Shown: positions 11,782-57,337, numbered from the stretch's first letter. The stretch: DNA of 64,000 nucleotides from Psammoneis japonica (GCA_008632985.1 QPGO01000067.1:1-64000); one strand, 5' to 3'. A program made the numbers and translations. Notes: generated from the sequence alone by a model not told the origin.

Positions 11782-12172
11782 GCCATAACCAGCTTGACTC
11801 GCTCTTTTGTGCCTGTGCGTGTCTTATCCATATACATCAGAGTTCTTCAGAATGTTCTCCGTATTCTCTATAAGTCATTTCAATGACTTATCCCAAACTG
11901 CAAGGTCTAACGAGATAAAGACTTCAGTGATAACAAAATTGTGAGCGAAAGACCGAGGTAACGAGGGTCGCTTTCAGCGAAGCCCGTTACAACGGCTTCC
12001 GTTATATCTAATAGGTTCATTAATACTATATATCAGAAAAATAAGGTGCGAGACACTGCACTCTTCCCTTCCATGATTCGAGTGTCGAGAATCATGCGGG
12101 ACTCAAAAAATTTAAATTCCAATGGATGAGGATAGAAGGGAAACCCAAATGTTGGGGAGAAAACCCTTAACC

Positions 12173-15656: not shown

Positions 15657-15668
15657 TTCCGTCCCTTG

Positions 15669-17581: not shown

Positions 17582-20500
17582 CATGTCAGCTGAAAACTGT
17601 CCTTTCCATCTTGTTCGCCCGGAACGAACAAGCGAAGAACATCGCAAAGATCGTTTTGTGTCTTTCGAGTCTCCAGTCGACCCAAATGATCCTGATGGAC
17701 TCAAGTCCACCATAGAAGTGCGTGCATTGGACAGTGATGACCCTGAAGACACTCTCGCTTTCTTCAAGCGTTGTGAAGAAATCTCTGCTGTCCTCAACAT
17801 TGCAGAGGGAATTCCACGTTTCCGTCCAATCAACCGCCTTTTGACAGGCCAGCCGATGGATGACTGGAACACTGTCATCGATCAGCACGAAGATCGAGAT
17901 CAAGACACTTTTCTTGCGGCACGCGAAGATTGCACCTTGACCAAGATGACCCGCGACATTGCGGCAGACACCAAGGATTGGCTGCAGTCCCTCAAGAAGC
18001 CACGCAATGACACCGTACAGTCATTTCTTCAACGTGTCCGCCAGATCCACGATCTCATCCCATTTGTGCCCTTGCCAACGGACGAAGATGTTGTTGATCC
18101 AATTCCGAAGTTCGCGGAAGCGGAGCTCGTCGTTGTCATCAGAAAATCCGGTCCCAAATCATGGATTCATGACCAAACCAAGGCCAACATTCGAGGATTG
18201 GGCCTCAACCAACAGGTCCAGTGCTGTGAAGGCTTGCGATGCATCGAGCCAAACAATCCTCGAGACAATTCTGGCGGGAATCGCCGGAACAATCGAAACA
18301 ATTCATCCAATCGTCGTGGTGGAAACCAGACGAATCGCAATGACAGGAATCAAGGTGCCAGTTCCAACAGAAGAAATCAACAGTCAAATGACACATGTCC
18401 CACACATGGTGTTGTGCATCCCGGTGGAAGGGAGTGCAACATCATTCGCCGAGAACGCAAACAGCATCAACATAACCGCACCAACCGCGGTCAACAACAG
18501 CAAGGCTCCAACCGCAATCAGAACAGTCAGAGGACTCAGCCAAGTCATCAGTGTGATGCAAGGAGCCATTCTCGTCTTCCAGAAGAGAACAATCAGGTTC
18601 AGAATCAACCTGCTCGTTCGACACAGGTTCGACTCCGCTCGAATCCGAACGACGCTGATGGCGCATCGTCACAAGACATCAACGAAATCTCCGACATGTT
18701 TGAAGAGATGAGTGCCACTCAGGAGTCCCAATTGAAAGTGCCGGACCCTGCATTGACTGCGGAAGCGACGACTCAGTTTCTCAATCGCGAGACAGGCCAA
18801 CACAAATGCTGTCTTGGCCTGCTCGACACTGGAGCGCGTGGCAATTTCGTCAAGCGTGATGCGCTCAAGTCCATTCCTCATTCCATCAAGACTGTGGATG
18901 CAAAAGTCAATGGAAGACACAAAGCAGTCAAATCTTCGCAGCTTGCCACTGTTGAAATCAAGCTCCCAGAATTTACGAGTGCAAAAAAAGCATCTGTTGA
19001 TGCTCACATCGAAGAGAAGGCAATCGGGCGCCATGACATCGTTGTTGGCCGCCGAACGTACCAAAGCCTTGGTCTCATCTTCAATTTCAAGACCAAGAGT
19101 GTCACATGGGACGATGTTGCCATTCCCATGCGTCCAGAAGGATCAATGGATCGAGACGAAATCACAAACATTGATCCTGCCGATGCAGCTTTGCCTGATT
19201 TTATGCTAGCTGCCATTCAACGTCAGACTCGTGCCATTTCTAGCAACGAGTGTGACAAGCATGACTGTCAGAAAATGGCATCGGAATGCAACCATTTGAC
19301 TGAAAGTCAAAAAAGACGACCTGTTGGAATTGTTCGGTCGCTGTCCCAATTTATTTGATGGAACCCTCGGTGCAGTTCCTGGTCCTCCGATCAAACTCCG
19401 AGTCAAGCCTGGCTCTGAGCCTTGTTGTGCCAGGGCTTGCACCACACCTCAAGCCCTTTGTCCCATCGCAAGAAAAGAAGTCGATGAACTTGAAAACATT
19501 GGCGTCATTGCTCGCGACATTGCTTCCGAGTGGGGCGCGCCATGTTCACTCCGACCAAAGAAAAATGGCGGAGTCCGTTTCTTGACCGACTTGCGGTGCC
19601 TCAACTCATGTCTCATTCGCCATCCTCATCCAACACCAAATCCTGATGATGTGATTTGGAAAATCAACGGATTTGCGCACGCCACTTGTTTCGATCTCAA
19701 CCGTGGCTACTGTCATTTCGCACTCGACCGAGAGTCGAGCAAGCTCTGTGCTGTCATCTTGCCGTGGGGCAAGTGTTGCCACCTTCGACTCCCTCAAGGA
19801 GCCATGCCTTCGAGTGACATCTTCCAAGCCTTTGTCAATCGACACTTTGGCGACATGGAAGACACATGTGCTTTCTTCGACAACATTCTTTTGTTTGCAA
19901 AATCAACTTTCGCTCAGCACCTCCAACGAATCAAGCTCGTGCTTCGTCGACTCGATGAGAGCAACCTTTGAGTGCACATTGAAGGCACTTTTCTTGCTGC
20001 TCCTGAGGTTGACTTCTCAGGGTGTCACATCACGAGAAAGGGTGTCACACCTCAGAAGGAAAAGATCATTCCCATCCTTTGTTTTGCTTCTCCCAAGAAC
20101 AAAAGTCAGCTCAGATCGTTCAATGGGTTCGTCAATTTTTGTGAGAAGTTGTGGCACCGCAAGAGCCACACCATGGCACCTCTGTCGGCTGTGGTTTCTC
20201 CTAAAATCAAGTTCAAGTGGACCGATGCCGAAGAACAAGCTTTTCAAGCTATGAAAAAAATTGTTGCTCGCCAAGTTCTGTTGCGCTTCCCTGATTTCGG
20301 TCGCGACTTCCATGTCTATGCCGACGCGAGCGATTGTCAACTCGGCGCCGTCATAACTCAGACATTTGAAGATGGCGAGTGGCCCATTGCATTCTACAGT
20401 CGTGAACTGTCCAGAGCTCAACGCAATTGCACTGCCATGGAGAAGGAATTGCTGTCCATCGTCGAAACAATGAATGCGTTTCGTAACATCCTATTTGGAT

Positions 20501-21860
20501 GTTGAGTGCATGCCAAGACCGACCACAAAAACTTGACCTTTGACAGGTTTAAGTCGGAACGCGTCAAACGTTGGCGTCTCTTGTTGGAAGAGTGTGATTG
20601 CACTTTTGAACATTGTCCTGGCAAGAACAACATCATCTCTGACTTTTTGAGTCGCTGTCCAGTCATCGACGTCTCTGCTGACGACTTTGAAGAAGCCATG
20701 ACTCTGAAACTCTCTGAAAATGAATTTCCAGTAACCTGTGACCGCATTGCGGAACATCAAGCCGCCGACAAGTCTCTTCAACTTCGTAAGACAACTTCTT
20801 CCATTTGTGCAAGCCATCAGTTTCAGAAACATCGCATCATTCTACGGAACGACAAGATCGTCCTTCCACCCACCTTGTTCCCAGCCGTGTTGCGCTGGTG
20901 TCACGATTCTCTCTGCCATCCTGGAGCTAATCGCACCTACCTCACTCTTGCTTCCCACTTCTACACTCGAAACATGCAAGAACTGGTTCGCCGTTTCGTC
21001 CGTGAATGCCAAATCTGTCAAAAACAAAAACGCACCGTGAAACAGTGCGGCGAATTACCACCACCAGATGTCGTGTGCAAACCGTGGCAAGTTGTGCAAG
21101 TCGATCTCTTTGGGCCCCGGACGTTTGCCGACATCAACGGCATTGACCGATCCATCAAGGCCGTCTCTGTGATCGACGTTGCCACTCGTTGGCCCAAATT
21201 GTCATCATGCAGTTCCAAGACCTCCGAAAACATCTCACCAATCGTGGATTGGGTGTGGTTCTGTCGTCATCCGCGACCCGAGTCCGTCATTTATGACAAC
21301 GGACCGGAATTCACGTCTGAATTTACCGGCTTGCTTGACAGCTGCGGAGTTGAGCCCAAGCCTGCGACCCCGTTAAAAATCCACAAGCGAACGCGATTGT
21401 CGAGTGCATCCACCAAGTCATTGGCGATTCCATCCGATCTGTGGATCTCAGCTCAAGACCTTTTGATGATTCAACAATCGAAGGTGTGCTTCAATCCGTC
21501 GCATGGGCTCTGCGCAGTGCCTGCCACACAGCCCTTGTGTCCACTCCTGCTCAGTTGGTCTTCGGCCGTGACATGGTCATTTCTGCGACATGTCTGGCTA
21601 ATTGGAAATTTATCAACAAACGTCGTGCTCAAAACGTCCTGCGCAACAACGCGCATGAAAATGCCAACCGTTTGCCTTGCAATCACAAGGTCGGTGATCA
21701 AGTTTGTGTGACCACCAAGGACGTCCAACGCAAGTTAAACCCCAAAGAGGGTCCATTCGCATCGCACGCATTCACACCAACGGTGCAGTCACCATCCAGC
21801 ACTCTCCCGACGTCACTGAACGGATCAACATCCGTTGTCTTCACCCTGTCTTCTAAACTG
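17582..21860 (+). pseudogene. Gypsy B gag-pol with several stops and frameshifts
   Basis: CPTH..H..C knuckle; LLDTGARG; PKKNGGVRFLTDLR; YADASD; EKELLSIV; TDHKNL; HDSLCHPG..CQIC; VDLFGP; DNGPEF. Confidence 0.92.
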
Positions 21861-22745
21861 TCCAGTTGGGGAAGCGAGTGCTGTGGGTGTGTGTGTCTGT
21901 CCGTAAGTGCATTGTGTGCGTGTCTCATCCATGTGCATCAGAGTTCTTCAGAATGTTCTCCGCATTCTCTGTGAGTCATTTCAACAACTTATCCCAAACA
22001 ACACAAGTCTTTCCAATGACTTGTTGTGTGTGTCTGGGTTCGGTTTCTGATCACTGCTTCAAGTGCCACGTTCTGCACATTTCACAAGATCTCCGAGAGA
22101 GCAGCTCTGAGAGATCTGTTCTATCTCGTCTCACAATTCGAGCATCCAACAGTGTGACATCTACATCATCAACTGTCTCCTGGCGCCATTGGGCAAACTG
22201 TTCCGGCAGCATTGCCGCACAAGTCCCCTGAGGGCACATGCGAGCAATGAAGTGCCCAGCACAGTTTGAACATCCGGGGAGCGTCACATTCACAAGGAGG
22301 CTGAGATCCGCCTTGACATTCATCGCCCCAATTGTCATCAAGAGAATGAGCGGCAGCAGCTTAGAAGCAAGTCGTGACAAGAACACACTTTGACATGCTC
22401 CAAAAGACAAGTTCGAATGATGATGTCGTGGTGTTGTGAGGACAGAATTTGCAGTCTCTGGCAACCCAGTGTGAGCCAATGGTTTGATTAGAACCAAGTT
22501 GACAACTGGCCTTGTGATGAACACAGATGAACTGGTTGTGATCACTTTGAATTTCGAAAAGGTGAGAAGACGAACGTCTCAACAAGTGTTTTCCGACAAG
22601 TGTTTGAGATGTCTTCAACAATTTGGGGGCCGCACGTGTGAACAATTTGGGGCCACAGAAATCGAATGTTGACAATCGGATGTCGCAGATGTCGCGAGGC
22701 ACAAATGGACGTCAACAGTCACACTCCCTCATTCGATGAGATGGG

Positions 22746-25700
22746 TCACCAGCCGAAAAGCAAATGACGGAGCTCATGGAAAGCCGCCTTGGGCAGCTGT
22801 TTCGTGAAGATGTCGGCTTGTTGATCGGCAGTGTGAATGGGTTGAACTTCAATGCGACCGTTGGCGACTTCGTTGCAAAAGTGGTGAAGCATGACGTTGA
22901 AGTGTCGAGTGCGTGGGCGCATTTTGGGTGCGCGAGCGATCTCCATTGCGGCGGAGTTGTCCTCGAACATCGTGCAATGCATGACAGGTGTCGTTTTCAC
23001 ATTGGTGTTTTTTTCCTTGAGTTCTTCCAACAGACACATGATAGATTTCACATGTCTGGCAGCTGCAGAGAGGGCAATGTGTTCAGATTCTGCGCTGCTG
23101 AGAGCAAACATTGTTTGCAGCTTGGAAGACCAATGCAGGGGCACATTTGCAAACTTGACAGCAAAACCAGAGCAAGAGCGAGCGGCATCAGGATGGTTTG
23201 CTGCGACAGCCTTGTCCCAGTTGCCACAAAAATCAGCATCAACACAGCAATCAAGGCCACGTGTGTCGTCTGGTTTGATGATGCATCCTTCATTTCGGGT
23301 GGCTGGCAGACATCTTCCAATGTGTTTGATGGCAGCGCCGTGAGAAGCTTTGGGATTCGACGTGAAGCGGGCGCATTGGTGAGCAGCATGTGCAATGTCA
23401 CCTCTTGTTGATTTTTCTAAGAAGTTCAGTTTTCCAATGACAGAGCGGCAGTTCCATGATTCCTGAAAAGGTGCGCCATCCGGATCGGGTCCGATGAGTT
23501 TTGCAGTGCTTGCTGGGAGCTCATGTGTCTTGGTGTTGTTTGAATTCGAGTTGTTGCAAGTGCCAATGAGACCAAGGTCTTGGAGAATGCTGTCAACGAG
23601 TTGTGGTTGGTGCAGTTTGAAAGAGCCGTCCGGTGACGTTTCGATTTTGACGCCAAGGCAGTCACCAATGTCGCCTTCATCGGACATGCGTGCACATGCA
23701 CCGAGATCCTTGATACATTGATCAATCTTAGCATCCGAAGGATCGAATGTAAGACCGTCATCGGTGCAAACTGGGAACATGGTCGTTCCACGGCAGAAAA
23801 CACATTCGTCGAATGAAGACTGTGTAAAACCAATGTCGAGTAGCACGTCTCGTAAGAATATAAACCACGTTCGTCCAGCGTCTTTTCCACCACATATGTT
23901 TTTCAATGCTTCCAAACAATGCTTGTTGCGATCCAAATTAGGAAAGTTGATGCCTCTTGGCAGTTCCACAAAGGTGGGCCTTGGAATGTCAGCGTGTGGA
24001 TGTGCCAATACAAAGTCAACTTGTCTTGATTTCCATTTGAAGAGGATGGAGAGAATAAGGAATAGACGGATGATAGTCCAAGAAAGTGTTGGAGCACAGG
24101 TTTCCTCGTAATGTTTTCCTTTCTTCATTTTGTGTCCTCCCAAGTTGAGTCGACTTTTCCACTTGCATGCTTTGCGTGTGCCGATACGTCGCTTGCGCTT
24201 CATAGACCATATTGCAGGAAGAATAGTCTCACCCTGTGGTACATCAGCCTTTTCAATAACTCGCCAATGTTTCCTATCGGTATGGTCTTGGACTTCTTTA
24301 ACCACAGCTTTCTTGAATTCGTGAGCGTCTGGTTCGCGAAGAGCCTCGTGCATGTAGAGAGTGTCCGGGTCATTGGAAGCTTTCATGCTGTACAAAATGG
24401 GGTCTTCTAGTTGATTTCGGTCGTCGTCGATGAGATACATGTCCTGGGCAATAGCTTCATAAGTGGTTGCAGCGTATGAGACAATATTTTGTTGACGTTG
24501 AAGTTGTGACTCAATGGCCCTTTGGGTCATTTGGACTTTACGACCAGAGCGAGTTGTGACCGTTGGTGTTGGCGATCCTGAGTCGGCTGCAGAAGTTTCA
24601 GAAGTCTCGTTTGTTGTTGATGGACCTCCCTCATTTGGTGGAGTAGCGGTCTCTGTTTGATCCGAGTGGCTTAGAGATGATCCTGTATCATTTGTATTGT
24701 CCATATCAGTTGGTGGTAAGTCCGATACATCTGGAGTAGGAGCTGCAGTCACCTTACGTCTTGACTTATCAGTTGTTTTTGCAGAGAATCTGACGCGTGC
24801 TTGTTTCTTGTAATGACACTTTTCTTGCCATACACTTCGAGGGATGACGGATGAGCCTTTGACAGTCTCAAATAGGTCGTCAAATTTGACATGGTATTGT
24901 GGAGAGGCAAGTCCTGTTTCAAGGTTAAGGATGAGTGCCACAGATCTGGCGTGTCTGGGTGAAGGTCCGAGGTAGATACCCACTCGTGCTCTTGTTTCCC
25001 ACTTTGGTAGATGAGAGCCTGACTGTAACTTGTTCTTTAACACATGTGCAGGACATCCAAAAGAGTGGAAGTGTCGTAGTTTTGGTTTGACTTGCACGTT
25101 TGCGAAGAGCTCTATTGGAGATTCGTTTCCAGGAGATCTGGCGGTGTGATTGTGCACGTTGTTGGCATAGCGTATAGCACATGGCCATAAGTGGTGATCA
25201 ATAGCGTTTGGCCAGCGATGGTGAGCGTGTATAAGTTGTGTTCTCGCTTGCTCTTGTAGGTCTCTAATGCGTTTTTCTGCTCTGCCGTTCTGAAAGTGTG
25301 CATTGACTCCGCAATGGGTCACATGCTGCCCTTGTTGACGTACCGATTTGATGAATGCGTTGTCGGCGAATCGTCCATTGTCGGCGTGACAGTGTTGGAT
25401 ACGGACTCCGAGGGAGCGGGCAAATGCTTCATAAGCAACTTTGGCGTGTAGCGTTTCTTCTGAGGTGATCGATTTTTGTAAGCACACGAAGGACAGGTCG
25501 CTATAATGGTCGACGAAGACCGTGACGTAGCGACATCGTTGACGTGTTGGCATGCCCTTGAGTTGAGCTGTTAGTCCAGGCGTGGTGGCGTCGAGTTGGT
25601 CGACTGATGCTACTTGGCCGGCAGCAGTGGCTTTGAAAATTTTGGTTTGTTGTGTGCCCTTGGTTCGCCATGGTACCTTGGTGGCTTTACCATAGCGGCA

Positions 25701-26409
25701 TGCAGCGCAGACGGGTACGCGGCAATCAGTGAGGCGCTTGGGTAGGTCTCCGGAGTTAGCCACATGCTTTATGCGTGAAAATGGCAAGTGTCCGAGTCGG
25801 TAGTGCCAAAGTAGTAGTTCGTTGGTAGGAGTCAGGTCGTCTGGGAATGTTTGGTCCTCGACGACTGGTGCGCCAAAGTTCGTATCCGAGAAGTCCACCG
25901 TGTTGGGTGTCGTGGCTTCTGGTGTAGCCGCAGTTGAGTTTGTAGGCGTTGTAGCAGCTGTTGAGTTGCTGTTATCGACGGCTTCGTTGAACGTGTGACG
26001 TGCAGTTGGTGCAGTGGTCTGTTCTTCAGGTAAGTCTTCAGGTTCGGGTTCGATGATGTGTGCATTTTGGAATGCTTTAGGTTCTCGTGCTTGCGAGTTG
26101 TACTCACGCTCAAATTCGTTGTGCTTGTCATAGGATGGAGCGGAGCGGAAGACTGGTACATTTGCCTTGGAGAGCGGCATAGTGCGAGAGCATTTCTCGT
26201 CTTGCCATCGAAGTGTCGTTCGATCGTGAAGTGTCTTTTCATACGTACCATCCGGATTGTTGGAAATTGGTGCGAGTACTTGTGCCAAGTGTTGTGGCGA
26301 GAGAAGACGAATTGGAAGCGCAGGTACGTAGTACGTGTTCGGTATGATGAATTCGTGTGGCAAGCCATCGTCGTCCTCAACCTTCCATTTAACTTTGCCC
26401 TTGAAGGTC
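22746..26409 (-). pseudogene. pol: Copia C pol, 3' part (end of protease, GAG-pre-integrase, integrase, RT, RNase H)
   Basis: LWHYRLGH..CAAC; FVDHYS; ADNGRF; QNGRAEKRIR; WSMKRKR..KSRL; VCTDD (YxDD position); CVDADF; EDNSAA; ADIFTK. Confidence 0.95.
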
Positions 26410-26519
26410 AAAGAAAGACAAAATTCTATATTTTAAGTGCTGCTCGAACTCCACTCGCCACTAGCTCCAAGCCGGCCCACACTCCCAGTACACCGAAGTG
26501 CGGCAGAAGTAGTTGTGGA

Positions 26520-29500
26520 TTAGCCGACCGCGGCGTCACGAGATTGTGACGCCCATCCAAAGCAGCTGAGAATGGTCCGAGCACCGCGCACGGCAAGTCG
26601 TTTTGCCTCTCTCATGCTTGTTTTAAAAAGTGATTTGTTCGTAGCCAACCAGTTGTGAATCTGATGAGTCGACTGGTTTAGGTGCTCTTCAACCGTGTCG
26701 AATAAATAATGCCGATCCTTTGCCAAATGTTCATTCTGTCGTTCGTGTGTCAACCTGAGTTCAGCCTCAGCAAGTCTGCGCTGTGCAGACTTCCACGTTT
26801 CTTTGTCGTGTCCGTGAAGAGCCTTGTTGTGGTCATCCCATAAAGCCCACCATTCTTTCCACACAAAAGAACCAATGCTGGTCACCCAATCACGTCTGCG
26901 TTTGTTAGTGTTACCTTCATCTGACCTCACGCGACGCTCAAGCACGTGAAACCGTTGGAGCTCATTCCACAGATGCGAAAAACGACCGTTGAAAATCTGT
27001 CGCCATCCGACAGCCTGTTGCGAAGCAGCCACTTGGCGCACACGGGGATGAATCGAATCAACATTGAGAACTTCCTCATTGAACCACGCTTCCAATCCTT
27101 GCAACAACAGATCCCTCAAAGGAGGCATCGTGTCTAATTCGTCACAGCGCCGACGCAAGCCTTGTAAAAATTTCCGATGCCACTGTGCCTGTCTCGGGCA
27201 CCGAAGGATGTGGTCTCGATCCTCCACAGGATGCTGACAGTGGAGACAACAGTCCGATCGCGCAGGATCACATCGATGTGCAATCTCATTTGCAGGCAAA
27301 ATGTCCTGAACCAATTTAACGGTTCCAACTCTGTGTTTGACATGACAATGCATTAAAGTTGCGTGCGTCTTCCAGTCGACTTGGTTGAAGACCTCTTCAG
27401 ACCAAGAGTGCTTTTGCTTCATGTGCTCAACCAGCGCAGGAGATGCTGCTGCACATCGAATCTGGCTCTTGAAATTGGACGCAACAGTTCCTTTCTCGAG
27501 AAGAAAATTGGCAGCGCAATGAGGTGAGCGTGGCACAGTTTCAGTGTCACCAAAACATTTACCCTGGAATGCTCCAGCCAAGTGATCGGCCCGAACGTTC
27601 AACCGCGCATTAAGAGGAAGTCGGGAAAGCGGAGCATGGCGATCCTGGTGTCCTTCAACCCATTCAACGGCAATGAAAGTGCCACTCTTGTCTTGTACCC
27701 GGTGTTCCTTTGTGTCAAGAAAAGCATGAAGAATTTCGTTCACGACATCCCAATCCGGAGACAATGTGTGCGAGACATGATGACGAAGAAGGAAATCCGT
27801 TTGGCTGTCCAAGGAGCATTCCTCACACTCAACGGGAGGAGGGGTGTTGAGATTTTGTACTGTGTTCACGAGGGAGCTGTTGTCACACACAGACAAAAAG
27901 CCTTGCAAGAAAACCGCATCGCAAAATTCCATCAGCCGAAGCATGAATCGAGACACAGACAATGGACCACGTGCTTCCGCTCGGCACGAAGCAGGGCGTT
28001 TCCCAAAAACTGGTCCAGAACAATCAACCAAAATGACTCCTTCAATCGTGAGTGTCCAACCAAAGGTGGCAGACTCGTGTGTGACGGAGCCGTCGCTGCC
28101 TGTTTTTCCAATCGCAGTGCGAAGAAAATCAGCAATCTCAAACACGGAGCGGTGCAGGGCAATAAAATCGAAGAGGGATGCCTCCCATTTTGGCAGAGAA
28201 CCGAGGAATGACTCAAAGTCAGATGCACTTGGAAGAGCAAACGGAGCATCAAATCCCACTCGCTGAAAGGAGAATGTCCAATGTCCAGCATCGGTGGAAT
28301 CAACGGAGACAGGAACAGCAGCAGAAGAAGGATGGGGAACCACTTCCAACGCACCCACCGAGTCAGCGCTCACATTGGACACCGGAAAAATTTCAAAACC
28401 CAAGGGTGATCGAATGTAAAGGAACTGTTCAGTTGAAGAGAAATGCGCCGATGCCTGCATCCGCATTTGGTCCACTGGGACAACCCAATCCCCTGAAGGC
28501 TCCCGTAAGTCGCAGTCATCTGAATTGCAGAAAAGAAGGCACGCGCGTCGCCATTGTTTCCAGGCGGCTGGGGACGGATTTTCCTGGTCAACGAAATTAA
28601 TCTGGCAGGTGCTGCTGGCCAGGGATGGTTGTCCCAGCACTTTAGATTCATCGAGACTGAGGCCATCAGGAAGCGTAATGTCAGAAAGCGTGAGAACCTG
28701 AAGAAACAGACGGCAACAATTTGCCAAGCATGCTTGACGATCAGTGAATGTTCCGGACTCCAGGACCGCGTCCATAATGTGTTGGTCGTTGTTGCGCTGA
28801 AGGGGAAGAACTCCACTCTGATCCAGCTCCATTCTACCATCAATTCGAGAGAGGAAGGACCGAAGTGACAATGGCCATTTTGATTCAGAATGGGGAAGAA
28901 CCGCAGTGACGTCATTGAGACAACTGATTCCTGTGCCCAGATGAAGTTGTGTCCACGAGACGGCAATGCGCAACAGTAAATTCGGCTGACCGTCACCTCG
29001 CCAGTGCTTAAGAAATTGGAGAGCTTGAGCCAAGCCTTGTTCCACATCTAGGGAGCGAAAACCACCGCCTCCCAACGAGCAAGGGCCGTGCAGAAGATCC
29101 CGTTTCGTGTTACGGTTGTAGCCACATTTGGCAAAAACAGCTCTCATAGATTTCCGTTGGATCTCAAGAAGTTGCTCAGGCGGGAAATGAGTGTTTGGGA
29201 GGACACAGGCAACAGACGGAAGACAGCTTGCATGACAACAAGTCCAGGCGTCGCTGCGGGTCATTGGACAGTTTCGAACAAGAGCACTCTTGGAGTCGCT
29301 CTTTTCTTTAAGCTTGGAGCATTGAGTCTTCTGGGTTCCAACCGGTGACTTGTGGTGTCCCAAGGTCTTATGAGCCGAACAAGCTGACAGCTGAGTGCTG
29401 CAACAGGAGGAGGATCTGTCCGCCGTGCATGTTTCCAATTCGAATTCATCATGACAAGGTTTCAGGTGCGGCTCACCATCGTCGGTGAAAAGCCACTCGA

Positions 29501-31360
29501 TGGCGTGGAACAAGCATTTCGGCAATTCAAGTTCGTGACCAGCAGCATTGAGAAGATCGCACCACAGTTGAGTGTCATGCTGCAGCTTCAATGCAAGATT
29601 GGCAGCCGAGGGTTGAGGAGATGCCCGAAAATCGTTTACCTGGGTAGATGCATCGTCAACGTAACCACGTGAGAACATGCGAAGCTGAATGGAACGGTCG
29701 GGAGATTCAAAGAACGCTCCACGCGCCTTCTGGTCAAACAAATCAAACAATGAATTGCAAATCTGGTTCCAACACTGGGGAGAATTGCCACTGCCTTGAC
29801 CGCTGCCATAAATCGGAAACTCAGCAGTGTGAGAGTACGAATCCTGGGCAAGTCCTGTTTCCGTTCGAAGCCAGTGTCGAGCCTCGTGGAGGGTTTCCGT
29901 GGCAGACGCCGTGACCTGCTTGTCCATGCCAAGGCTCCTGCTCTGAATGGCACACACAGCCGGAAGGTTCCGATCACAATACGAGGTGCAATCATTGTCT
30001 CCTGACATGAGAGTCTTCCGTCCAGTCCTTGACATCTCAAGCACAAGTTCTTCCAAAAACACCGGATCATTCGCACATTTGAATGCTCTCGTGCCACAGA
30101 TCCCTGGATTGTGCAGTCGTTCCTGTTCCATGTGTTGTGCCAAAGCTCGCCACTTGACACTGCAGATGAATTGAAAATCCGCCTCATAGACATGCACAAC
30201 ACGCAATCGGTGAATCTTGGTGTTTCCCGGTTCCTTGAAAATCATGACATTCACGACATCTTTCCAGCGGTCGCAGGAATGTCCCCACTTCAAAGTGCAG
30301 TTCAGCAAGTTCAAACGGACGTGGACAAGGTTAGTTTGGACTGCATCCAAGGCGTCCTTCTCAGGAGTGGGATCTCCGCCACCATGACGAGCAGACTCAA
30401 GAGCTCCTGGAGTCGCCAATGCGCAATCTCGAAAAATCCGTGTCTTTCGTGAGATGACACACAACGTCAGAGAGTTCAAAGCGCTGTGCCATCGATGAGA
30501 GAAGGTCGTTGTCATCAGCAAAATCTGTGTTGAAGTCTCCACAGATGATGACCTCCCGATCAGGGTCAGACAAGAAGGATTGAAGGATCTTTGACAAGTC
30601 CTGACAGAACGCTTTCCGTGGGTCGAGAGTGGAGGATTCTCTTTGCCTGAGTGGAGACACTTGTTGTGCAAAAGCAGTGGTTTCACCAGGGGAGTTTCGG
30701 TGTTTTGGACAAACCCGACAACAAGACATTGCCACAACTTGGCGTCCTCGCTTGCCATCAAACACTTGAAAGGACCACCGGCCAAGAGGATCAGATTCTT
30801 GAGATCGAAAACGACCAGCAATCGAGTTGCAAGATAAAAGAGCAGTGCCACCTGGCTTGCAGGGTGAAACAAAGGAGATGTCACTCGTCGAAAAAGTGGC
30901 TCGACCATGATGCAAAGAATTGCGCACCGTTTTCAAACAGGCAGACTTAATCGGATGCTGAGAAGTGTCCAAACAAGTTTCCGAGATGCCTGTCAGGTCC
31001 GCCTGGATCTCGTTAGCCACTTGACAGCACGAGTTAAAGTCACCACCTTGAGCGTCATACGACGTTCCGTTTGCATTGAAAGCATGTGAGCGCGTGTGNA
31101 TCCGGGAGTTTTTCCTGCAACAGGGAGCCAATGGCTTCATTGGAACGTAAATTAGAACAGTCAATGGTCCTTTGTTGTGAAGACACCCGTGAACGTCCGT
31201 CTAGAAGAGTGCGCCAAGCTTGAGAAGCTGACGATGTCGACACCTGTGTCGACTGAGTTGGATTGTGACAAGCCGATAAACGGCTGGGGGTGAGGCCGTG
31301 CTTCCGCGAAGGAAGACTGAGGACTAGACCCGGATGGAGAAGGCATCCTGTCTGCGTCAT
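26520..31360 (-). pseudogene. LINE ORF2 (AP endonuclease, RT, RNase H, zinc finger), frameshifted
   Basis: FNANG, GISET, PGGT, DPLGRWS, CGDFN (APE); IFKEPG..RLRVV, GSGQGSG.SP, GYVDD (RT); SDGS, RAEARG, CDN, WVEGHQD, LNVRADHLA (RNase H); CLHC..EDRDHILRC. Confidence 0.9.
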
Positions 31361-31393
31361 GAGAAAACAGCGGGTTAGACGACTGGGCCCACC

Positions 31394-33046
31394 TTACAGA
31401 AAATCCGAATCAGTTCGATTCAAGTCCTCCATGGCAGCATCGTTGGGAGGTTGTTCGGAGGAAGAGCCAGCGGGAACCGAAACTGCTGGGCGTTTGCGGT
31501 GCGGAGATTGACTGGACCCAGCAGACATGGCCACAAGAGACTCTTGAACAAGAGAGTGAACCTCATTAGATAAAGTTTCCAGTGAAGCCTGACAATGCTG
31601 CTCCAGACGCTCGATGCACTTTTCGTCATCCTGTTGAGATTGCAAGACGAGTTGCTTCAATTCGGCAACTTCTTGAGACGCAGAAGTGAGATCAGAGGCA
31701 GCAGGAGTGCCTGGAATGACCGTGCCAGGTGTGCTCCGGAGAACTTGCGCGAAGGTTTGAAATCCACCATGAATTCCCACAGCAGGCGGGATTGGAGCCG
31801 AAGGAGGAGGTTGTGGCTGTGCCGATGGATTGGTGAGAGAACCAGAAGGAGAAACATCAGAAATGTCAAGAGAAACCCAGCTCTGGACACTCGCAGATGT
31901 GATCGAATCTGCCGTGTCGGAAACATCATCAGTGACACCAGGGATCATCGGGCGGGGAGCGTTCACCAGAGGAACAACGTCGCCAGGGAGATCATTGATC
32001 CAGCCAGGTAACTGTTGAGAGATCTGCTGCTTAATTTGATGAAAATGAGTCTTGTCAACAAGAATGTTGTGCCGCGGAGTCTTGGCAAAACGTTTCGACG
32101 GAACAAAATCCAGTGCGCCGGGAACAGGGCTGATGTTGGCCGACAGGCAAAAGGCGACATTTTCCGGACAATGGAGCAAAGGAATAACGTGAGTTTTGGC
32201 AAGTGTTTTGCTCTGTTTGCGCACTGCTTTGTCGAATTCGTCAGGGTGAGAATGACGCCACCGGGAAAAAACAAGGACCAATGGATGCGTTTTTAGAACT
32301 TCCAACAATGCCGTGATCATGTCTTTGGCATGCTGCCGCGGAGTTTCAACAGCATAAAATGTTGCACGGATGGAAGGATCTTTGGGAGACTCAACGGAGT
32401 GAGGTGTCAATCGGAAGTGAAGTTTGGACTTGGCACGAGGAGAGAGTGACTCCAACAACTTTTTCACAGCAAGGTCAGCCGGACAGTGTTTCGGGAGATG
32501 ATCCATGAGGAGAGCAACGTGAGACAAGTCGACAATCGTCTCATCCCATTCATGACGCCGCATGAAAATGCCATTGTCTTTCAAAACTTTGTTGACGAAT
32601 GGAATGTTCCAGACATCTGACAAGGACAAGGAAGTGCGGATGCGATGGGCAACAACAAAGGTGGGGGGATGACGACGAGAGCCGCTGATGCGATGCACGA
32701 CAAAATGTTGTGAGTGAATGAGACCAGAAGTCCATTCAACCACGTTGACATCAGAAAGGCATTTGCCTCGGTTCGACATGATGGACACCTTGTTCACCAA
32801 TGGGTCTTGGGAGGCAGTCTGCTGTAAGGCATGAAGAACAGTCGTGTGCCCCATGGCGAGAACCGTGGTGGCGTTGTCTTCAGAAGAGGCAAGTTCAAAA
32901 CGAAGGGTGATCTCTTTCAGATCGGCACTTTCGGGACGGCCGGAACCAGTCCTAGTGGGAGTGAATGGAGCATTGTCCATGCCGGAGGGAGGATGAGGGT
33001 TGTGCTCACTGGTGGGGCCAGCCAGCGGCGGCAGAGGGGTCGTCAT
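31394..33046 (-). CDS. LINE ORF1 (550 aa, C-terminal coiled coil), Tyr-depleted and probably dead
   Basis: ATG at 33046, 75 nt inside the 5' end; open frame ends just before ORF2. Confidence 0.7.
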   Translation of the reverse strand: MTTPLPPLAGPTSEHNPHPPSGMDNAPFTPTRTGSGRPESADLKEITLRFELASSEDNATTVLAMGHTTVLHALQQTASQDPLVNKVSIMSNRGKCLSDVNVVEWTSGLIHSQHFVVHRISGSRRHPPTFVVAHRIRTSLSLSDVWNIPFVNKVLKDNGIFMRRHEWDETIVDLSHVALLMDHLPKHCPADLAVKKLLESLSPRAKSKLHFRLTPHSVESPKDPSIRATFYAVETPRQHAKDMITALLEVLKTHPLVLVFSRWRHSHPDEFDKAVRKQSKTLAKTHVIPLLHCPENVAFCLSANISPVPGALDFVPSKRFAKTPRHNILVDKTHFHQIKQQISQQLPGWINDLPGDVVPLVNAPRPMIPGVTDDVSDTADSITSASVQSWVSLDISDVSPSGSLTNPSAQPQPPPSAPIPPAVGIHGGFQTFAQVLRSTPGTVIPGTPAASDLTSASQEVAELKQLVLQSQQDDEKCIERLEQHCQASLETLSNEVHSLVQESLVAMSAGSSQSPHRKRPAVSVPAGSSSEQPPNDAAMEDLNRTDSDFL

Positions 33047-33140
33047 GGCGACGGCTGCTTGGTGCACAAAACGCGTAGAATTCCACGTAGAACTCACTAA
33101 TGTGTGCTTACGTAGAAAAGTAACTTTGCCCTTGAAGGTC

Positions 33141-35059
33141 GATTTGGCGTTGCCACTTGCAGCTTCCACGACAACGTTGACCTCAGTTGGTGGTTCAATG
33201 AAGTCGTCTTTGTTGTTGGTCATGCAGCAGGAGGCATGGTTGTCAACTCCGAGGTTGAACGAGTCTGTGTCGAAGTTGTGATCGTGTTGATCATTGCAGT
33301 TACAGCCATGGGAGCATGATGCAGTGTGGCATGAGGCGTGCTGCGATTTGAATCGTGTGAGTCGGCAAGTGGCTTTGTTGCACATGATGAAATGTCGGCG
33401 TTTTCGTCGGATGTGACGCATGTTGGTCTTGAGATGGTTTGGTTTCCTTGGTGGTCTACGACTTCTCAGGAGACATTCCGTCATTCGTCGTAACCAGGAA
33501 CGCAGGAGTGGAAAGGAGCAGAGCCAGTTCAGCAGTTCCACCATCGCGCAGCAGATCATGTTGAGCGCACAGAAGAATGGCAGGAAGACTGTGCATGCAC
33601 CACAGAACAGCCACAGCCGTAAGTGCAGCTTGACTTGTAATGCGGTGCTGGCGAGCACTCACTCTTGATCCGATACGTCGTGTACGCCAACGTTTGCCAT
33701 AGAGGCAGTTAGGTCAGATTCGGCCTTGTTCTTGACGGTGGTGCAGTCCTTGGTGAGGTGAGCAGACCAATGCTCGTGATGTTTGCACCATTTGCAGGGT
33801 TTGCCCTCAACAGTCTTGGTGTGTGATTGTCCGTCTTTAGGAGCCGTGTTGCGCCAGGCTAGCTTTCCGTAGAAGAGTTGTTTCTTGCATCCGTTAGGTA
33901 GGATCTTGAACTTCTGGCGCTTGTTGTGATTGTTGGAACCCGATTCTTTTGTTTTGTTGCTCTTGGTGGAGCTCTGAGCATTCCTGTTTCCGCTGCTGGC
34001 AGAGTGTGGAGCGTTGCGAGCTTTGTTGTCGCGCAGAGTCTTCACTTTGGCTTGTAGAGCTACGATGGTTTCTTGCTCTTTCGTTGGTGCCATCCACTTT
34101 TCAGATTCGATGAGGATCTTGTGCTTGTTTTCAGCCTTGAGCATGAGAGCATGTACGTCAAGATCTGATCCATCTTCGTAGTCACTCTTGCACTTCTTGA
34201 TGGATTCGATGAATTCTGAGTCGGTGCACGTGAGGCAAGCCTTGAATGCGTTGTTCAGCAGGTCGGAACCAGTGTGGCCGTGAGTGGCAAGTTTCTTTTC
34301 CAAGGATTTGACGTGGTTGTTGAAAGTCTTGATGTTTTGACCGTCAACTGCAGCCATGCAAGCATCCAGGTTGCCCATTTGGTCACGGATTGCCGAGACA
34401 GCAGCCCTTGTGTCGACTTGAGCCTTGGATGGAAGAGCTTTGAGGCAGGCTGCGCCGCATTCCTCATCTCCAACAGTGCACTGAGCCTTTTCTTCCGTTG
34501 CCATGATGGTCTTGGAGGCCTTGTCTAGGGTGCTCTGGAGACATGCGAGAAGCTGGCAGTTGTTCTGCGCGTTGCGTTGCGCTAGATTGAGGCAAGTGGC
34601 AGATGCGGTGCGAATTTGTTCAGCTGAGATTTGTCCACACTCAGTGAGCATGTCCTTGTTCTCGACTGGCAAAGCAGGAACTGCACCATGGTTGATGTTG
34701 ATTGTGAGGACTTTGTTCCAACCATTGGTTTTGGAACGGACCGCGAGTTCTTCGAGGAAGACTGGGATGTTGGGCGATTCAAGACTGAACTGGGTGTCCA
34801 ACGGCTTGGTCGCGTCTACGAAAACGAGCGTGTCACCTTTCTTGGTGTAGTCCAAAACGTCTGCACGGGCCAGTGCTGGTGACTTGGCAAAAGGTCCTGG
34901 AGCAGCTGCTGCTGGTGGTGCAGGCATGTTGTTCACAATCGGCTGGACAGCCGCCTGGACAGCTTGTGCGATGGCGTTAGCGAGCGCGTCAGCGTCCGCC
35001 ACAATGAGGTCTTGAAGTTCCTGAGCACGTCTTTGTGCTCCTCTTGTTAAATGGCACAT
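33141..35059 (-). pseudogene. gag: Copia C gag (33659-35059) followed in the same frame by a linker and the protease N-terminus
   Basis: WCKHHEHWSAH-x4-C knuckle; FDTDS..GVDNHASCCM..DDF protease motif. Confidence 0.85.
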
Positions 35060-35379
35060 CTTGTTGGTTCGGAGAGAACGTTGCTGGTTCGATTAAGAAC
35101 ACTTTATCGCAGAGGAAGCGTGTGAGCTGATGGTTTAATTAGAACTAAGTTGACAACTGGCCTTGTGATGAACACAGATGAACTGGTTGTGATTGCTTTG
35201 AATTTCGAAAAGGTGAGAAGACGAACGTCTCAACAAGTGTTTTCCGACAAGTGTTTGAGATGTCTTCAACAATTTGGGGGCCGTACGTGCAAACAATTTG
35301 GGGCCATAGAAATCGAATGTTGACAATCGGATGTCGCAGATGTCGCGAGGCATGAATGGACGTCAACAGTCACACCCAG

Positions 35380-38300
35380 CACTCACTGTTCTCTGTTTTT
35401 TTTTTTTTTTTTGTGAGAGGAGAAGAAACAAGTGCGGAAGCAAAAAATCAAAAACACACGCAATGCATGGGGTTCATGCAGTGTGTGTTTCTGAAAGCGC
35501 ATGTGGAATGATGCAGAGGAATCAGTGTGAGAAAATCTTTGGTGTCAACAAAGATGCATGCAGAAAAAAGAAAAAAAAAGCGCGTGTAGAATGACACAGA
35601 GGAGTTGGCACAAGAAATCTTTGGTGTCAACAAAGATGCATGCAGGCTTTGACTTTCTCGTTGTTGGACTCGGATTTGCTGCCAATCGCAGTGAACGAAA
35701 CCACGTCAGTGCCATCGTCTTCAGCATGCTCTGTTGTGATTGGTTCAACATGATGTGAGTTCTCCATTTGTCCACGGAAGCAAGAATTTTGGCATCACCA
35801 AAGTTCCCAACTAACCCAGGAAGCCTTGGGAAAGTCAGGCCACTCCCAAAATGATGCACTGCTGTCCACTGCTCTCTGTTGTTCTGCAAGAATCAGTTGC
35901 ATGGCACTGCACAAACTCCAGGCCTGCAGGTTGTCACTGAAGCTGGCATCGTCCATGCCCCTGCTTCGAGCAGTGGTCCCACCACCCCGCACACCATCCA
36001 CGCTGGCAAATCAAAGAAGCTCTTCGTCCTTGCCTTCTGTTGCTTCTTGGGTTTGTCCAAGCTCTGGCAAGTCAGAGAGAGCATGTTTGGCATCGGCTCA
36101 GGCACTCCATCTCCATCGACATGATCCTTGGTTTCTTCATCAAAATTGTCCAACAGCAGATGCAGCCCAAGACTCAAACTCCCCTGATCATCATCATTCT
36201 TCAGAGGGTCAATGAAGCCACTGTCGTCACATTGGAAAGGCAAAGGGATGAGTGTCAGGCACTTGTGCTGCTCATCCTCTTCCTGTGAATCCAGGCAATT
36301 GATGCAAGCTTGTCTCCCTTTCTTCAAGGCTTGACACTTGGGGTGGTTCTCATCAAATCCAGGAACACCTTCATGCTCAAAAAGAAGAATGTCAGGGTTG
36401 ATTGCGTCAGCCCCGGTCGGCAGCAGAGCTTGAATTCTCACAGAACGACTGCCTTTCACGATCTTGGCTTCCACATGATGGCTCTTGACACAGCAACGTG
36501 ATTGACACCATTGTCTGGGTCCATCCATGCAAGAACAGAGGTCGTGAATGCCTTGTCATGTGAACTCTGAAGTGCGATGAAACCTGCAGATTCTTTTGCA
36601 CTTCAGATGCCAAGACATCATCCGTGCTGCCGGAGTTGCTGGCATTCTCCTTCTTCTTGCCACTGGCAGGGACTTGGGCAGGAGGCTTGGATGGTGCTTT
36701 CTTGGTGGCAGCCTTCTTCTTGGCACTTGTCTTCACCATGGTGTCTTTGTCTTTGTCTCCTCTGGCAGGAGTGTCAACGTCTTCTTCATCATCTTCCTCC
36801 TTCTCGACTGCCTCTTCTTCTGCCACACCCACTTCCTCCACAATGTCCTCATCTTCTTCTTCTCCTTTGGTGTCTTCTGCCTTTTGCTTTCCGGTTTTGC
36901 CCTTGTCAGACTTGCACTTTGCTGTCAACATTGCAAAATGCATGGGTCATGATTCAACAATGCTGCAAAACAACATCAACACATTGCAACGACATAAAAA
37001 GAAACACACATCTGCTGACACCATCTTTTCCCAGCTTTACAAAATTCTCACAGGTGCGGCTCGTCTGTGTCCACCAATGGCTTTGTCCAAGTTGGAGTTC
37101 TTTTGTGGCCTCCAAGGTTTTTGTGCAAGAAAAGACGAACCATTCATTTGCCTGGAATTTTTCTTTGACGCAGGCAGGGTGCATCTGCGTTGGAGGGATC
37201 CCAGCCATGCAAGTGCTTGGCACACTCTTGAGCTTGTTGTTTCTTCCAGCGGGGTGCTTTTGATGACTGCTCAACGTTTTGGTGTGCTTCTTTTTCTTGG
37301 AGAGCACTGGCACACCATTTTGCATGTTGTGTGTGCAACATTTGTGTGTTCATTGCAATTTTGGGTGATGTTCAACTTTTGAATTCCGGCCAGAATTCTA
37401 AAAATGTCTGTTCATGATTTCCTGCCACTTTGATGCAAGCGATCACCTCGAGAGAGGGAACTGCAAAGAAGCCCATGGCAACATGCAAAAGAAGGACATC
37501 AGAGGTGCACAAAAAAATGGGCAAATCAAATGCAACGCTTCCATGTGAGATGTCACTGTCATCCAAACAGGCCAGAAAACCACTTGCCTGCCCTGTGCTT
37601 GCATGTGCCATTCATGCAGATCTCTTGTGTGTTGCCATGCACTTCTTCGTGACATCCTCTTTCCTTGCCATTGCTCGCATCAAAGTGGTTGGAAATCGCA
37701 ACAAAAAATGCCGGCCAAATTGGCCAGAAAATGACCAGCATTAAAATGCAGAAATTGGTGTGTGAAGCAATGTGATTGATGCATTTGAAAATGCACAGTC
37801 TCATCCACCATGCTGTGGGCAGGGAGGTGGGGCCATGGGGCAACAGCATTTGAGTGCATCTTTCTGTGTGCATTCCGCACTGGAATGCTGCATGTGAGGC
37901 CGGTGTGCTGACCTGCAGCACCCAGCAACACAGTGGCGCCACCACTCTCAATCAACAAGAAATCGAGACATGACACGAGTGAAACACAAAGCAGAGATCG
38001 GTTGGTGCCAAATGCCAGCACTGTTGTTGTTCTGTGTCATTCGCAGACCTGCAACACATCTGAGATGATCATGCAAATTGTTCATGCCAGCGTCATTGTT
38101 CTGCCACAGTTGACTCTGCAGATTGTAAGACAACAAATCAAGGGAAGTCCAGGAAGTCATTTCATTTGTTCAAGTTCAAGAAGGCAGGACTGCAACATGA
38201 GGTCTGCACAAATGTTCTCACTGGCATTTTGTGTGGATTCATGGACCTTTTTCTCCCAGAGATTGGCCAGATCTTGCCATCTTCCAACACAGTCTGAAGC

Positions 38301-40150
38301 ACAATGTTGAGAAGAATGAGTGGCTTGAAGCAGATGATGGATGTGGTGCCAAGGACCCTGACTTTGTAAAGACTCCTGCTGGCATTTGATGCGTGGAACC
38401 AAAGGCAGTTGTCAGGGCTAGATCCATTGCCAGGAACAAGGAGAGACAGCCAATGACCATCTCAAGCTCTTCAAGTGTGCCTTTCTGAATGCTTTCACCA
38501 CAACATTGAACTTTGTGGCCAGTGCTTCTGAGCCTGCGCCATCGTCACACAGCTGTCTTTCCAGCATGGCAAAGGCTCATTCAGCACAGCAGACAAATGT
38601 GGTGTCCTGCAGAAAACCACCGATTTGAAGGATTTTCCTCTTCCAAGCACTCCAGCAGATGATGATTTGCAAGAGAGCAAACAGTGTTCTTTTTGTGAAC
38701 TGGAGCATTCATTGACAAAATGCGTGCCACGCCCCAGCATGCCGTGCATGCCAACCTTTGCCCAAACCTTTTGCTGTCATGCTTTGTGCACACATGTGCA
38801 GTGGCCAACATGCAGTCTCTGTGCTGCAACATGACATGAGCACAATGAGACCGGTTTGGTGCATCTTGTCGACCTGGCCATTTTTGTTGAAGCCGCCAAC
38901 ACCAGGGACAAAGGCAGGGCTGGAACAGATCCGCATCATGGCCAGACAACCTGACTTTCCCGCAGCTTCTGGCAGGAAGCAAGCAATTGGAAAATGCTGG
39001 TGTGCACGTTGAAGTAAACTTCTGCGTCACAATTGCGTCAGCAGCTGCAAGTTTGAATGACCAGGATTGTTGATGAGAGAACAGTCTCAATGAGTTGGAT
39101 TTGAGTGTGCGCCCCTCCACATCCAATGCAGAGCTTCTGGGATCCTGGCCAAGAACGCTGAGAAGCAACTTGATGCCAAGAATGCTTGGGAGTCTCACAG
39201 AGCAGAGCTTCTGGTCAAAGCTCAACTGCTCTCCCGTTCAGAAGCTCAGGGTCATTAAAAGCAATCAAATCACATCTCCTGCCTTGTCCTTGACTCCACA
39301 ACTCCCTTGGTTGACAGAGTTGGGCAGAGCACAACATCCTGGGTGTGGTGTGTGGGCAAAGAAGAAAAACCTTTTCCAAGCAGCAGTGTGATCCAGTCAC
39401 AGTGATCAGTGTTCCTGTCCCAAACAAAGCTGGAAAAGTGAGAAGAATGAAAAGTCCCAAGTTTGACCAGTCACAGTCACAAAGACTGGACCATGTCATC
39501 TTGACCTGGAAGTGCCCTCCTTCAAGATGGACAAACCGAGAAGTCACAGTTGGTGGGTGGATGTGCTGCTGGCATGTCGTCTCCATCTAAACTTGGGGGT
39601 GTGAAGAGGACTCAAGTGCACGCCAAGCAGTTCTCCACATCCAACACAGAGCTTCTAGGATCCCAGCCAAGAACCACTGAGAAGTGACTTGACACCAAGA
39701 ATGCTCAGGATTCTCACAGATCTGAGCTTCTGGTCAAAGCTCTGCTCTGCACAAAGGGGGGATGGGTGAAACCAAACCCTCTGCAGGGTTCTGTGAAGAC
39801 AAACACAGGGGCTCGCAGGACCAAGAGAAAAGTGATGACACCTCGGGCACTTTTTGAGCAGCAGCTTTTGATGCTGTGGCCAACAGCATTTTGCTGCATT
39901 GGCCACAGGAAAAAAAAAATTGCAGGCTCAAAAAAGCAGAAGAAATGCCAGTTCCTGCTTCCCCATGCAGAAGCTCAGGGTCTTCAAAAGCAATCAAATT
40001 GCATCTCCTGCTTTGTCCTCAACTCTGTGACTCCCTTGGTTGACAGAGCCCCCCCCCCCGATGAGACACCCAGGTGGTGGCCACCTTGAAACCATGGTCA
40101 CACAGGACTGCATGCAAAGTCCTGCACCACCAGAAGCACATGTGTCCAAC
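35380..40150. mobile_element. Decayed repeat region, possibly including a PIF/Harbinger-type DNA transposon remnant on the minus strand (~35.9-39.0 kb)
   Basis: Depleted of TpA and CpG. Acidic/Lys-rich ORF remnants at 35893-36943. HTERCTQMLL..SHTNFCI near 37740-37880 weakly resembles the Harbinger IE.AFG.L..LHNFCI motif. Confidence 0.3.
39119..40048 (+). repeat. Dispersed direct repeat in two blocks (~39119-39223 with ~39638-39741; ~39238-39318 with ~39967-40048)
   Basis: catccaa..cagagcttct..ggtcaaagctc and cagaagctcagggtc..ccttggttgacagag each occur twice, differing often by TG/CA swaps. Confidence 0.8.
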
Positions 40151-57280: not shown

Positions 57281-57337
57281 AATGAGATCTCGGATTTTAA
57301 GGGAGTACTGATGCTAGCATACAAGTAGTATACAAAC

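Follow-up and report, generated by a model that had tools for sequence, protein, structure and literature searches.

The 64,000-nucleotide stretch of Psammoneis japonica DNA analysed here (QPGO01000067.1:1-64000, assembly GCA_008632985.1; hereafter the window) carries at 22470-35374, on the minus strand, a single old and dead insertion of a Ty1/copia retrotransposon with a canonical length of about 6.2 kb, in which TpA dinucleotides appear to have been replaced by CpA and TpG. The element is bounded by two long terminal repeats (LTRs) of 254 bp, outside which the left flank reads GGCAACCCAG and the right flank CCCAGCACTC, with the 5-bp duplication CCCAG on both sides. Since the pol open reading frame (ORF) is on the minus strand, 35121-35374 is the 5' LTR and 22470-22723 the 3' LTR. 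The Pfam domains gag_pre-integrs (residues 196-242), SH3_retrovirus (442-511) and RVT_2 (716-951) of the pol ORF follow each other in the copia order, and a run of 7 purines (GAGGGAG in the orientation of the element) adjoins the 3' LTR at 22724-22730. The nearest named relatives are diatom proteins with 42-46% identity. Homologues of pol are single ORFs of 1300-1400 aa in contigs of about 6 kb, while the present element spans 12.9 kb, its frame is divided by a 6.7-kb insert, and the Tyr of its YxDD motif (residue 882) is now Cys.

The insert is bordered by identical 20-mers and includes an ORF for an APE-type endonuclease and an ORF2-like ORF of 1462 aa; the 20-bp duplication together with these two ORFs identifies it as a long interspersed nuclear element (LINE) nested in the copia element. 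The 1462-aa ORF has 41 homologues, mostly of about 2000 aa and carrying PF03372, PF00078 or PF13966, and those with a name are from diatoms. A contig derived from sequencing reads (depth 308) fuses 26389 to 33121, hence other copies lack the 6731-bp insert.

The two LTRs are direct repeats that align without gaps, have TG..CA termini and are 95.3% identical. Their 12 differing bases are all transitions and fall in eight sites. Four sites differ by one base (left/right LTR: G/A at 22486, C/T at 22495, C/T at 22633 and C/T at 22656), and in all four the right LTR has TA. The other four are tandem swaps, with CA in one LTR and TG in the other (22477-8, 22543-4, 22639-40 and 22702-3). The changed states are six CA and two TG in the left LTR, and one CA and three TG in the right LTR. 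Each LTR has 12 CpG at the same positions, none of the 12 differs, and at no site is CG opposed to TG or CA. The original prediction had described this LTR pair in the same terms, with eight differing sites, four of them keeping TA in the right LTR and four being reciprocal CA/TG pairs, and with about a dozen identical CpG, and each of these points was recovered exactly. Random placement of 12 transitions on the LTR never put all of them in sites that fit an ancestral TpA (here termed TA-type; 0/200,000 trials) and gave four or more adjacent pairs in 147/200,000 trials. No third copy of the 254-bp LTR was found in the window by repeat search and blastn.

The pair was modelled with each ancestral site open to an independent hit in either LTR, CA and TG being equally likely outcomes. 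The model fits well if the four swap sites descend from TA, the chance of loss then being 0.92 for the 3' LTR and 0.60 for the 5' LTR, and the likelihood ratio favouring TA over CG at these sites is 3.1x10^4; a CpG ancestor calls for four double hits and no single hit among 16 sites, with a maximum likelihood of 3e-6. The TA sites of the two LTRs would have received about 2.5 and 0.9 hits each, while none of 472 other bases changed, which gives a TpA rate at least ~270-fold over background, as an indirect estimate from the LTR pair rather than a measured rate. The unequal loss parallels that of the adjoining internal sequence, which is nearly free of TpA beside the 3' LTR.

Ordinary spectra in other LTR pairs had been named beforehand as the result that would speak against this interpretation. 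The three further LTR-like pairs of the window proved to be of the same kind, with 33 of 40 differing bases TA-type and 10 swap sites; pooled with the copia pair, the figures are 45 of 52 differing bases and 14 swap sites. Ordinary mutation spectra were seen in related metagenomic copia elements, whose 15 LTR pairs gave 24 TA-type among 228 differences and no swaps (Fisher p = 5.6e-27 against the window), although some terminal repeats among these controls may be assembly effects.

Three outgroup comparisons, of protein columns, genomic copies and a paralogue, support TA to CA/TG as the direction of change. Of 15 Tyr columns of copia pol that are conserved in 28 homologues, the YxDD Tyr included, the window has Tyr in three, Cys in 10 and His in two, while conserved His (19/19) and Cys (8/8) columns are all kept. 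The LINE ORF has Tyr in three, Cys in seven, His in five and other residues in five of its 20 conserved Tyr columns. At conserved columns, a single TA-to-CA/TG step explains 19 of the 38 copia replacements and 18 of the 106 LINE replacements, compared with 2 of 38 and 8 of 106 for a single CpG step. Among the 40 variant rows listed, out of 1109, other genomic copies have TA against CA or TG of the window in 15 and the reverse in one, and CG against TG or CA in eight and the reverse in two. Finally, a repeat at 6834-10564 in a domain of normal composition was compared with its second copy, which lies in three pieces in a depleted domain: the 125 TA of the former correspond to 49 CA, 53 TG and 8 TA in the latter, and its 176 CG to 58 CA, 63 TG and 40 CG. 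Changes in the reverse direction are close to zero. The proposal that all eight LTR sites descend from TpA thus agrees with outgroup tests in and beside the element and, for the swap sites, with the likelihood ratio given above, although it reaches the LTRs by way of adjoining sequence.

The loss of TpA extends far beyond the element, over the greater part of the window. In the whole window the observed/expected ratio (obs/exp) is 0.26 for TpA, 1.48 for CpA and 1.43 for TpG, and about 40 kb of transposon-rich DNA is nearly emptied of TpA while the adjacent genes are spared, a confinement judged on this one 64-kb window. Three kinds of domain were distinguished (Table 1). The older domains are depleted of both TpA and CpG, and 36001-53000 by itself has TpA at 0.02-0.11 and CpG at 0.18-0.63. 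Only TpA is depleted in the domain that holds two gypsy-type elements, the copia element and the LINE (12001-36000). Without the LINE, the copia element has a TA obs/exp of 0.36 and a CpG obs/exp of 0.90; in pol, TA is at 0.15 in the 3' part and 0.62 in the 5' part, and the flank at 22196-22469 has 0.06. In the transposon island around the element the TA obs/exp is down to 0.02-0.2, as against 0.5-0.7 in neighbouring genes. The genes at 54261-61721 have 0.59, and uninterrupted ORFs of the host at 54-62 kb encode an alcohol dehydrogenase, a RING protein and a type-II NADH dehydrogenase.

Table 1 Features and composition domains of the window (obs/exp, observed/expected ratio; a point marks features with no strand).
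Feature	Position	Strand	Basis or composition
Copia 3' LTR, 254 bp	22470..22723	-	TA obs/exp 0.05; single TA remaining
Copia 5' LTR, 254 bp	35121..35374	-	TA obs/exp 0.25; 5 TA remaining
Copia target-site duplication CCCAG, left copy	22465..22469	.	Flank comparison
Copia target-site duplication CCCAG, right copy	35375..35379	.	Flank comparison
Copia pol ORF, 1221 aa	22746..26411	-	Integrase, then reverse transcriptase (RVT_2)
Gag-side part of copia ORF, separated from pol by the LINE	33141..35059	-	TA obs/exp 0.22
Nested LINE (non-LTR), 6.7 kb	26410..33120	-	TA obs/exp 0.18
LINE target duplication, 20 bp, left copy	26390..26409	.	Identical 20-mer
LINE target duplication, 20 bp, right copy	33121..33140	.	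Identical 20-mer
APE-type endonuclease ORF in LINE	30397..31164	-	Exo_endo_phos, E 2.4e-6
ORF2-like ORF in LINE, 1462 aa	26520..30908	-	Homologue comparison
Gypsy-type element	12173-16604	-	In TpA-only depleted domain
Gypsy-type element	20506-21711	+	In TpA-only depleted domain
Spared patch, near-normal TpA	23601..26800	.	400-bp map: TpA obs/exp 0.36-0.86; spans copia/LINE junction
Older domains, both dinucleotides depleted	1-5000 and 36001-53000	.	1-kb map: TpA 0.00-0.11, CpG 0.03-0.63
TpA-only depleted domain	12001-24000 and 27001-36000	.	1-kb map: TpA 0.05-0.36, CpG 0.75-1.02
Near-normal domains	5001-12000, 24001-27000, 54001-64000	.	1-kb map: TpA 0.44-0.72, CpG ~0.8-1.1

The process acts without strand bias and without processive tracts: the paralogue pair has 49 CA and 53 TG outcomes, both kinds occur in each LTR, and a runs test on the TA outcomes was not significant (48 runs, 52.0 expected). 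It depends strongly on the four-base context, with a preference in the order ATAT > ATAC/GTAT > GTAC, ATAG > ... >> TTAA. Survival relative to the normal domains was 0.05 for ATAT, 0.07 for ATAC/GTAT, 0.18 for GTAC, 0.47 for CTAA/TTAG and 0.85 for TTAA in the TpA-only domain; in the doubly depleted domain it was 0.00 for each of the first three, 0.17 for CTAA/TTAG and 0.64 for TTAA. VTAB sites (IUPAC code) as a whole survive at 16% in the TpA-only and 1% in the doubly depleted domain, and sites with one T:A flank at 36% and 11%, respectively. In the polarised pairs VTAB sites were kept in 0/67 cases and T:A-flanked sites in 13/64 (p = 4.5e-5), counts that leave out sites changed to other than CA or TG. 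A strand-specific target of three bases (VTA) was rejected, as singly flanked sites were changed equally on either strand (22 and 24), so that the effect of the flank is on the entire duplex step. A single flank rule for CpG and TpA alike was also rejected, given that CpG survival ranges over 0.22-0.52 in ten contexts and TA survival over 0.00-0.64. CpG decay proceeds separately and more slowly, and is confined to the older domains and absent from 12-36 kb.

The depleted patches are sharp-edged, with edges near 5.0, 12.1, 23.6, 26.8 and 53.5 kb, and indifferent to element borders. In the 400-bp map only 3 TA occur in the 1200 bp of 22401-23600, 10-17 TA per 400 bp in 23601-26800, and the number drops again from 26801. 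This spared patch might reflect gene conversion, a boundary in the chromatin or some form of protection. At the domain edge, the left LTR of a gypsy element (11899-12061) keeps 10 TA that its partner has lost and has itself lost none.

These results are best accounted for by hypermutation of TpA to CpA and TpG after integration, which would have affected the dead, LINE-split copia element together with the surrounding transposon DNA, and this reading is held with high confidence. After the copia element had integrated, T:A pairs at TpA steps were changed to C:G on either strand, leaving other bases, CpG among them, almost unaffected. The two LTRs were hit independently, the 3' LTR losing about nine in ten and the 5' LTR about six in ten of its ancestral TpA; a hit in just one of them leaves TA facing CA or TG, and hits in both on opposite strands leave CA facing TG. 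The LINE was inserted into the copia element later and split it, and the TpA process does not need a homologous partner. The data establish the pattern and its direction, the timing after insertion, the TpA specificity, the hits on both strands, the regional targeting of transposon DNA, the context rule and the independence from CpG decay; a nuclear activity directed against silenced or foreign chromatin is the likely agent.

Five other explanations were weighed against post-integration TpA hypermutation. First, the swap sites may have been CpG at which 5-methylcytosine was deaminated on opposite strands of the two LTRs. CpG decay does take place in the window: of 176 CpG in the spared paralogue, 121 read CA or TG in its mutated partner, and CpG is depleted at 1-5000 and 36001-53000, to an obs/exp of 0.04-0.6. 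However, CpG is not depleted in the copia element itself, all 12 LTR CpG are intact in both copies, the likelihood ratio is against it, and the four single sites are TA-type regardless, which makes a CpG origin very improbable. TpA loss resembles 5-methylcytosine decay in that a self-complementary pyrimidine-purine step is turned into TpG and CpA in equal shares in silenced repeats; it differs in the step that is hit and in its strong dependence on the flanks, and CpG decay is absent from the LTR pair.

Second, the changes could have preceded integration, by A-to-I editing of RNA, deamination of cDNA or errors of the reverse transcriptase (RT). ADAR-type editing prefers A after U, according to the main text of a bioRxiv preprint by Mettrop et al. 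(10.64898/2026.01.13.699255), and the Tyr changes in the spared patch, discussed below, suggest that part of the TpA loss may have come with the source copy. Editing by ADAR and APOBEC likewise leaves deaminase-type signatures in retroelement copies, but these enzymes work before insertion and on a single strand, with RNA or cDNA as substrate, leaving the LTRs alike. Here both LTRs derive from one template and yet differ at eight sites, T>C and A>G are both present on one strand of each LTR, and the same loss is found in the nested LINE, in the flank at 22196-22469 and in DNA that is not retroelement. Moreover, the boundary of the spared patch spans the copia/LINE junction, which places the TpA loss after the LINE insertion. 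The prediction had attributed the differences to changes in chromosomal DNA on both strands after insertion and had argued against RNA editing and RT error as their source, and these observations bear it out; a pre-integration origin has a very low probability.

Third, modified bases miscalled in long reads and resolved randomly to CA or TG would account for the equal shares of CA and TG, for the swaps and for TA and CG being lost together. In a read check, contigs were assembled by exact 31-letter words from a run of the same organism, at a word depth of 52-66. Against the most depleted part of the window, the contigs had 0 differences in 776 nt (record 7), 1 in 644 nt (record 4), 2 in 643 nt (record 5) and 4 in 1314 nt (record 6), and they carry the same particular mix of CA and TG. 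Other copies aligned to the region show 942 transitions against 144 transversions. Strand-specific miscalls would instead yield all-CA and all-TG versions, and the coding consequences are coherent in two elements, the copia and the LINE. The read contigs exclude an artefact strongly though not absolutely, as the record of the run does not state its library type, and an artefact is considered most unlikely.

Fourth, the two LTRs may stem from different copies that recombination or gene conversion brought together, in which case their differences would be older than the locus. Several copies of the copia family do exist, at depths of 350-780 as compared with about 55-65 for a single copy, and gene conversion could have left the spared patch within the element. 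The identical 5-bp duplications are nevertheless what a single insertion would give, and differences of TA-type only would still need the mutation process, so that a two-copy origin is hardly to be expected.

Last, the direction could be reversed, with the TAs of the right LTR made by a homology-triggered C-to-T process at CpA/TpG like fungal repeat-induced point mutation (RIP). RIP changes C to T at CpA, which makes TpA, and needs paired duplicates, both of which are mutated. It shares with the present case the dinucleotide-specific transitions that riddle transposons and destroy reading frames, but here TpA is destroyed and not in excess, and one LTR or paralogue can stay spared. Such an origin is the least probable of the five: from the LTR pair alone the single sites are equally readable as CA/TG to TA, but TpA is depleted rather than enriched in the window and the element, the outgroups make TA ancestral, C-to-T alone is unable to make the swap sites, and duplicates are hit unequally, the spared gypsy left LTR and the spared paralogue at 6834-10564 (against its saturated copy) arguing against a trigger by homology pairing.

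Four points weigh against post-integration TpA hypermutation as set out above, or narrow it. The eight LTR sites are polarised through adjoining sequence, and none of the listed variant rows falls in an LTR. Four of the conserved-Tyr changes lie within the spared patch, and part of the TpA loss may therefore come from the source copy instead of having arisen in place. The reads, from three run records of one sample and study, may be from the assembly's own sample, in which case the read check rules out a consensus artefact and does not represent an independent individual. Finally, the 78 metagenomic loci of copia relatives have TA obs/exp values of 0.30-0.92 and none is as TpA-poor as the window, so that the process is not general among the hosts of this copia group.

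A full-text literature search for TpA-specific T:A>C:G hypermutation returned only the 2026 preprint of Mettrop et al., on integrated viruses of one alga, and nothing for diatoms. According to its main text, A>G/T>C changes arise de novo and exclusively at TpA, at about 1000-fold over background, in an integrated giant virus and virophage of Bigelowiella natans, and their long-term trace is windows poor in TpA and rich in CpA and TpG; TpA-poor coding sequences are enriched in RT and DDE domains, and an ADAT2-like deaminase was proposed, as yet unproven in B. natans (10.64898/2026.01.13.699255). The main text has no mention of CpG, LTR, retrotransposons, copia, diatom, context, trinucleotide or flanking, a statement that does not extend to the supplements, which may hold context data.

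By this comparison, the process in the window appears to be of the same kind as that in B. natans, but with retrotransposons of another lineage as targets and with depletion at saturation. As far as that text goes, both have A>G/T>C at TpA only, strand-dependent TpG or CpA, blocks of foreign or mobile DNA as targets and a rate orders of magnitude over background. In contrast, the present host resembles a diatom (stramenopile) and not a chlorarachniophyte, the targets are LTR and LINE retrotransposons, and depletion goes down to obs/exp 0.02, as against 0.45 for the viral region in the preprint. The B. natans events were seen de novo in cultures, while those described here are known from traces in the genome sequence. 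Beyond the main text of the preprint go the four-base context rule, the patch edges that ignore element borders, the unequal hits on duplicates and the separate CpG decay. The CoDi-type Ty1/copia elements of diatoms share domain order and size with the present one, but this copy is dead and split by a LINE, with 12 of 15 conserved Tyr replaced.

With regard to the chemistry, oxidized thymine at TpA could give a base that mispairs with G. Oxidation of thymine with such a product is the main chemical alternative, though an unlikely one, to the deamination of adenine at TpA steps of duplex DNA, with hypoxanthine as product; the latter, by analogy with the proposal for B. natans, may be the most likely route, at a confidence that stops short of favouring it outright. 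Another TpA-specific lesion or a repair error are further alternatives.

More speculatively, diatoms and chlorarachniophytes, and perhaps a wider range of the stramenopile-alveolate-Rhizaria (SAR) group, could share a chromatin-directed DNA-editing defence, a possibility put forward tentatively and with more doubt than belief. It would turn duplex TpA (best ATAT, hardly TTAA) in silenced mobile or viral DNA into CpA or TpG on either strand until TpA is gone, as an adenine- or thymine-directed counterpart of RIP and CpG decay. It would kill frames by changing Tyr to Cys or His and may act independently on homologous chromosomes, the alleles of an island diverging by about 10%.

That the same signature is found at saturation on diatom-like LTR and LINE elements suggests that a genome defence so far overlooked is widespread among major marine phytoplankton. 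The four-base target rule, the sharp domain edges, which can be set against chromatin marks, and the independence from homology and from CpG decay offer handles toward the enzyme. Dating by LTR divergence is invalid in such genomes; here all 12 differences stem from the one TpA process. The two haplotypes may appear much more divergent than their descent would imply. Over 41091-41865, two read contigs of equal depth (64.2 and 66.4) were obtained, one identical to the window and the other with 89 differences and 5 gaps; the divergent contig could come from the other haplotype of this transposon island, after independent hypermutation, or from a paralogue.

Transposon proteins affected in this manner escape domain searches, and ORFs are inflated because the stops TAA and TAG vanish with TpA, so that ORF length is a poor guide to intactness here. 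Long open frames occur in the dead elements (for example 26520-30908 and 31394-33658), as do overlapping ORFs of 150-250 aa on both strands. Pfam gave nothing in the ORFs at 26520-30908 and 31394-33658 and only a sub-threshold match at 33659-35059, and a PDB sequence search with the 1462-aa ORF gave no match. The sole ambiguous base of the 64 kb, a lone N at 31099, is inside the nested LINE. Just outside the right target duplication of the copia element there is a run of about 20 T (35394-35413), at which the reads seem to break.

As for the neighbouring genes, the named best matches of the NADH dehydrogenase are from diatoms, with up to 56% identity, and no near-identical protein is on record for it, for copia pol or for the LINE ORF. 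The organism was accordingly taken as a diatom or close relative that the protein collection lacks, and not as Bigelowiella. An uninterrupted ORF of 747 aa on the minus strand of the gene-like domain (59478-61721) has no Pfam family.

The repeat of about 3.5 kb used in the paralogue comparison also lacks a Pfam family; it is unmutated at 6834-10564 and saturated at 40159-42478, 47604-48184 and 51275-51838. Two insertions, one of 5.1 kb and one of 3.1 kb, divide the saturated copy, and the shorter one is edged by a pair of 169-bp repeats (48185-48353 and 51098-51263). Near the gypsy elements, 11814-12061, 17125-17487 and 21915-22195 contain repeat blocks a, b and c in the combinations a+b, b+c and a+c. 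The arrangement suggests that a gypsy element with 163-bp LTRs was inserted at the edge of an LTR of a second element, which has 201-bp LTRs. Two tandem repeats were also noted, one with a 60-bp unit in about 5 copies that are 65-76% alike (46718-47017), and one with a 138-bp unit in 3 copies that are 91-92% alike (9662-10075).

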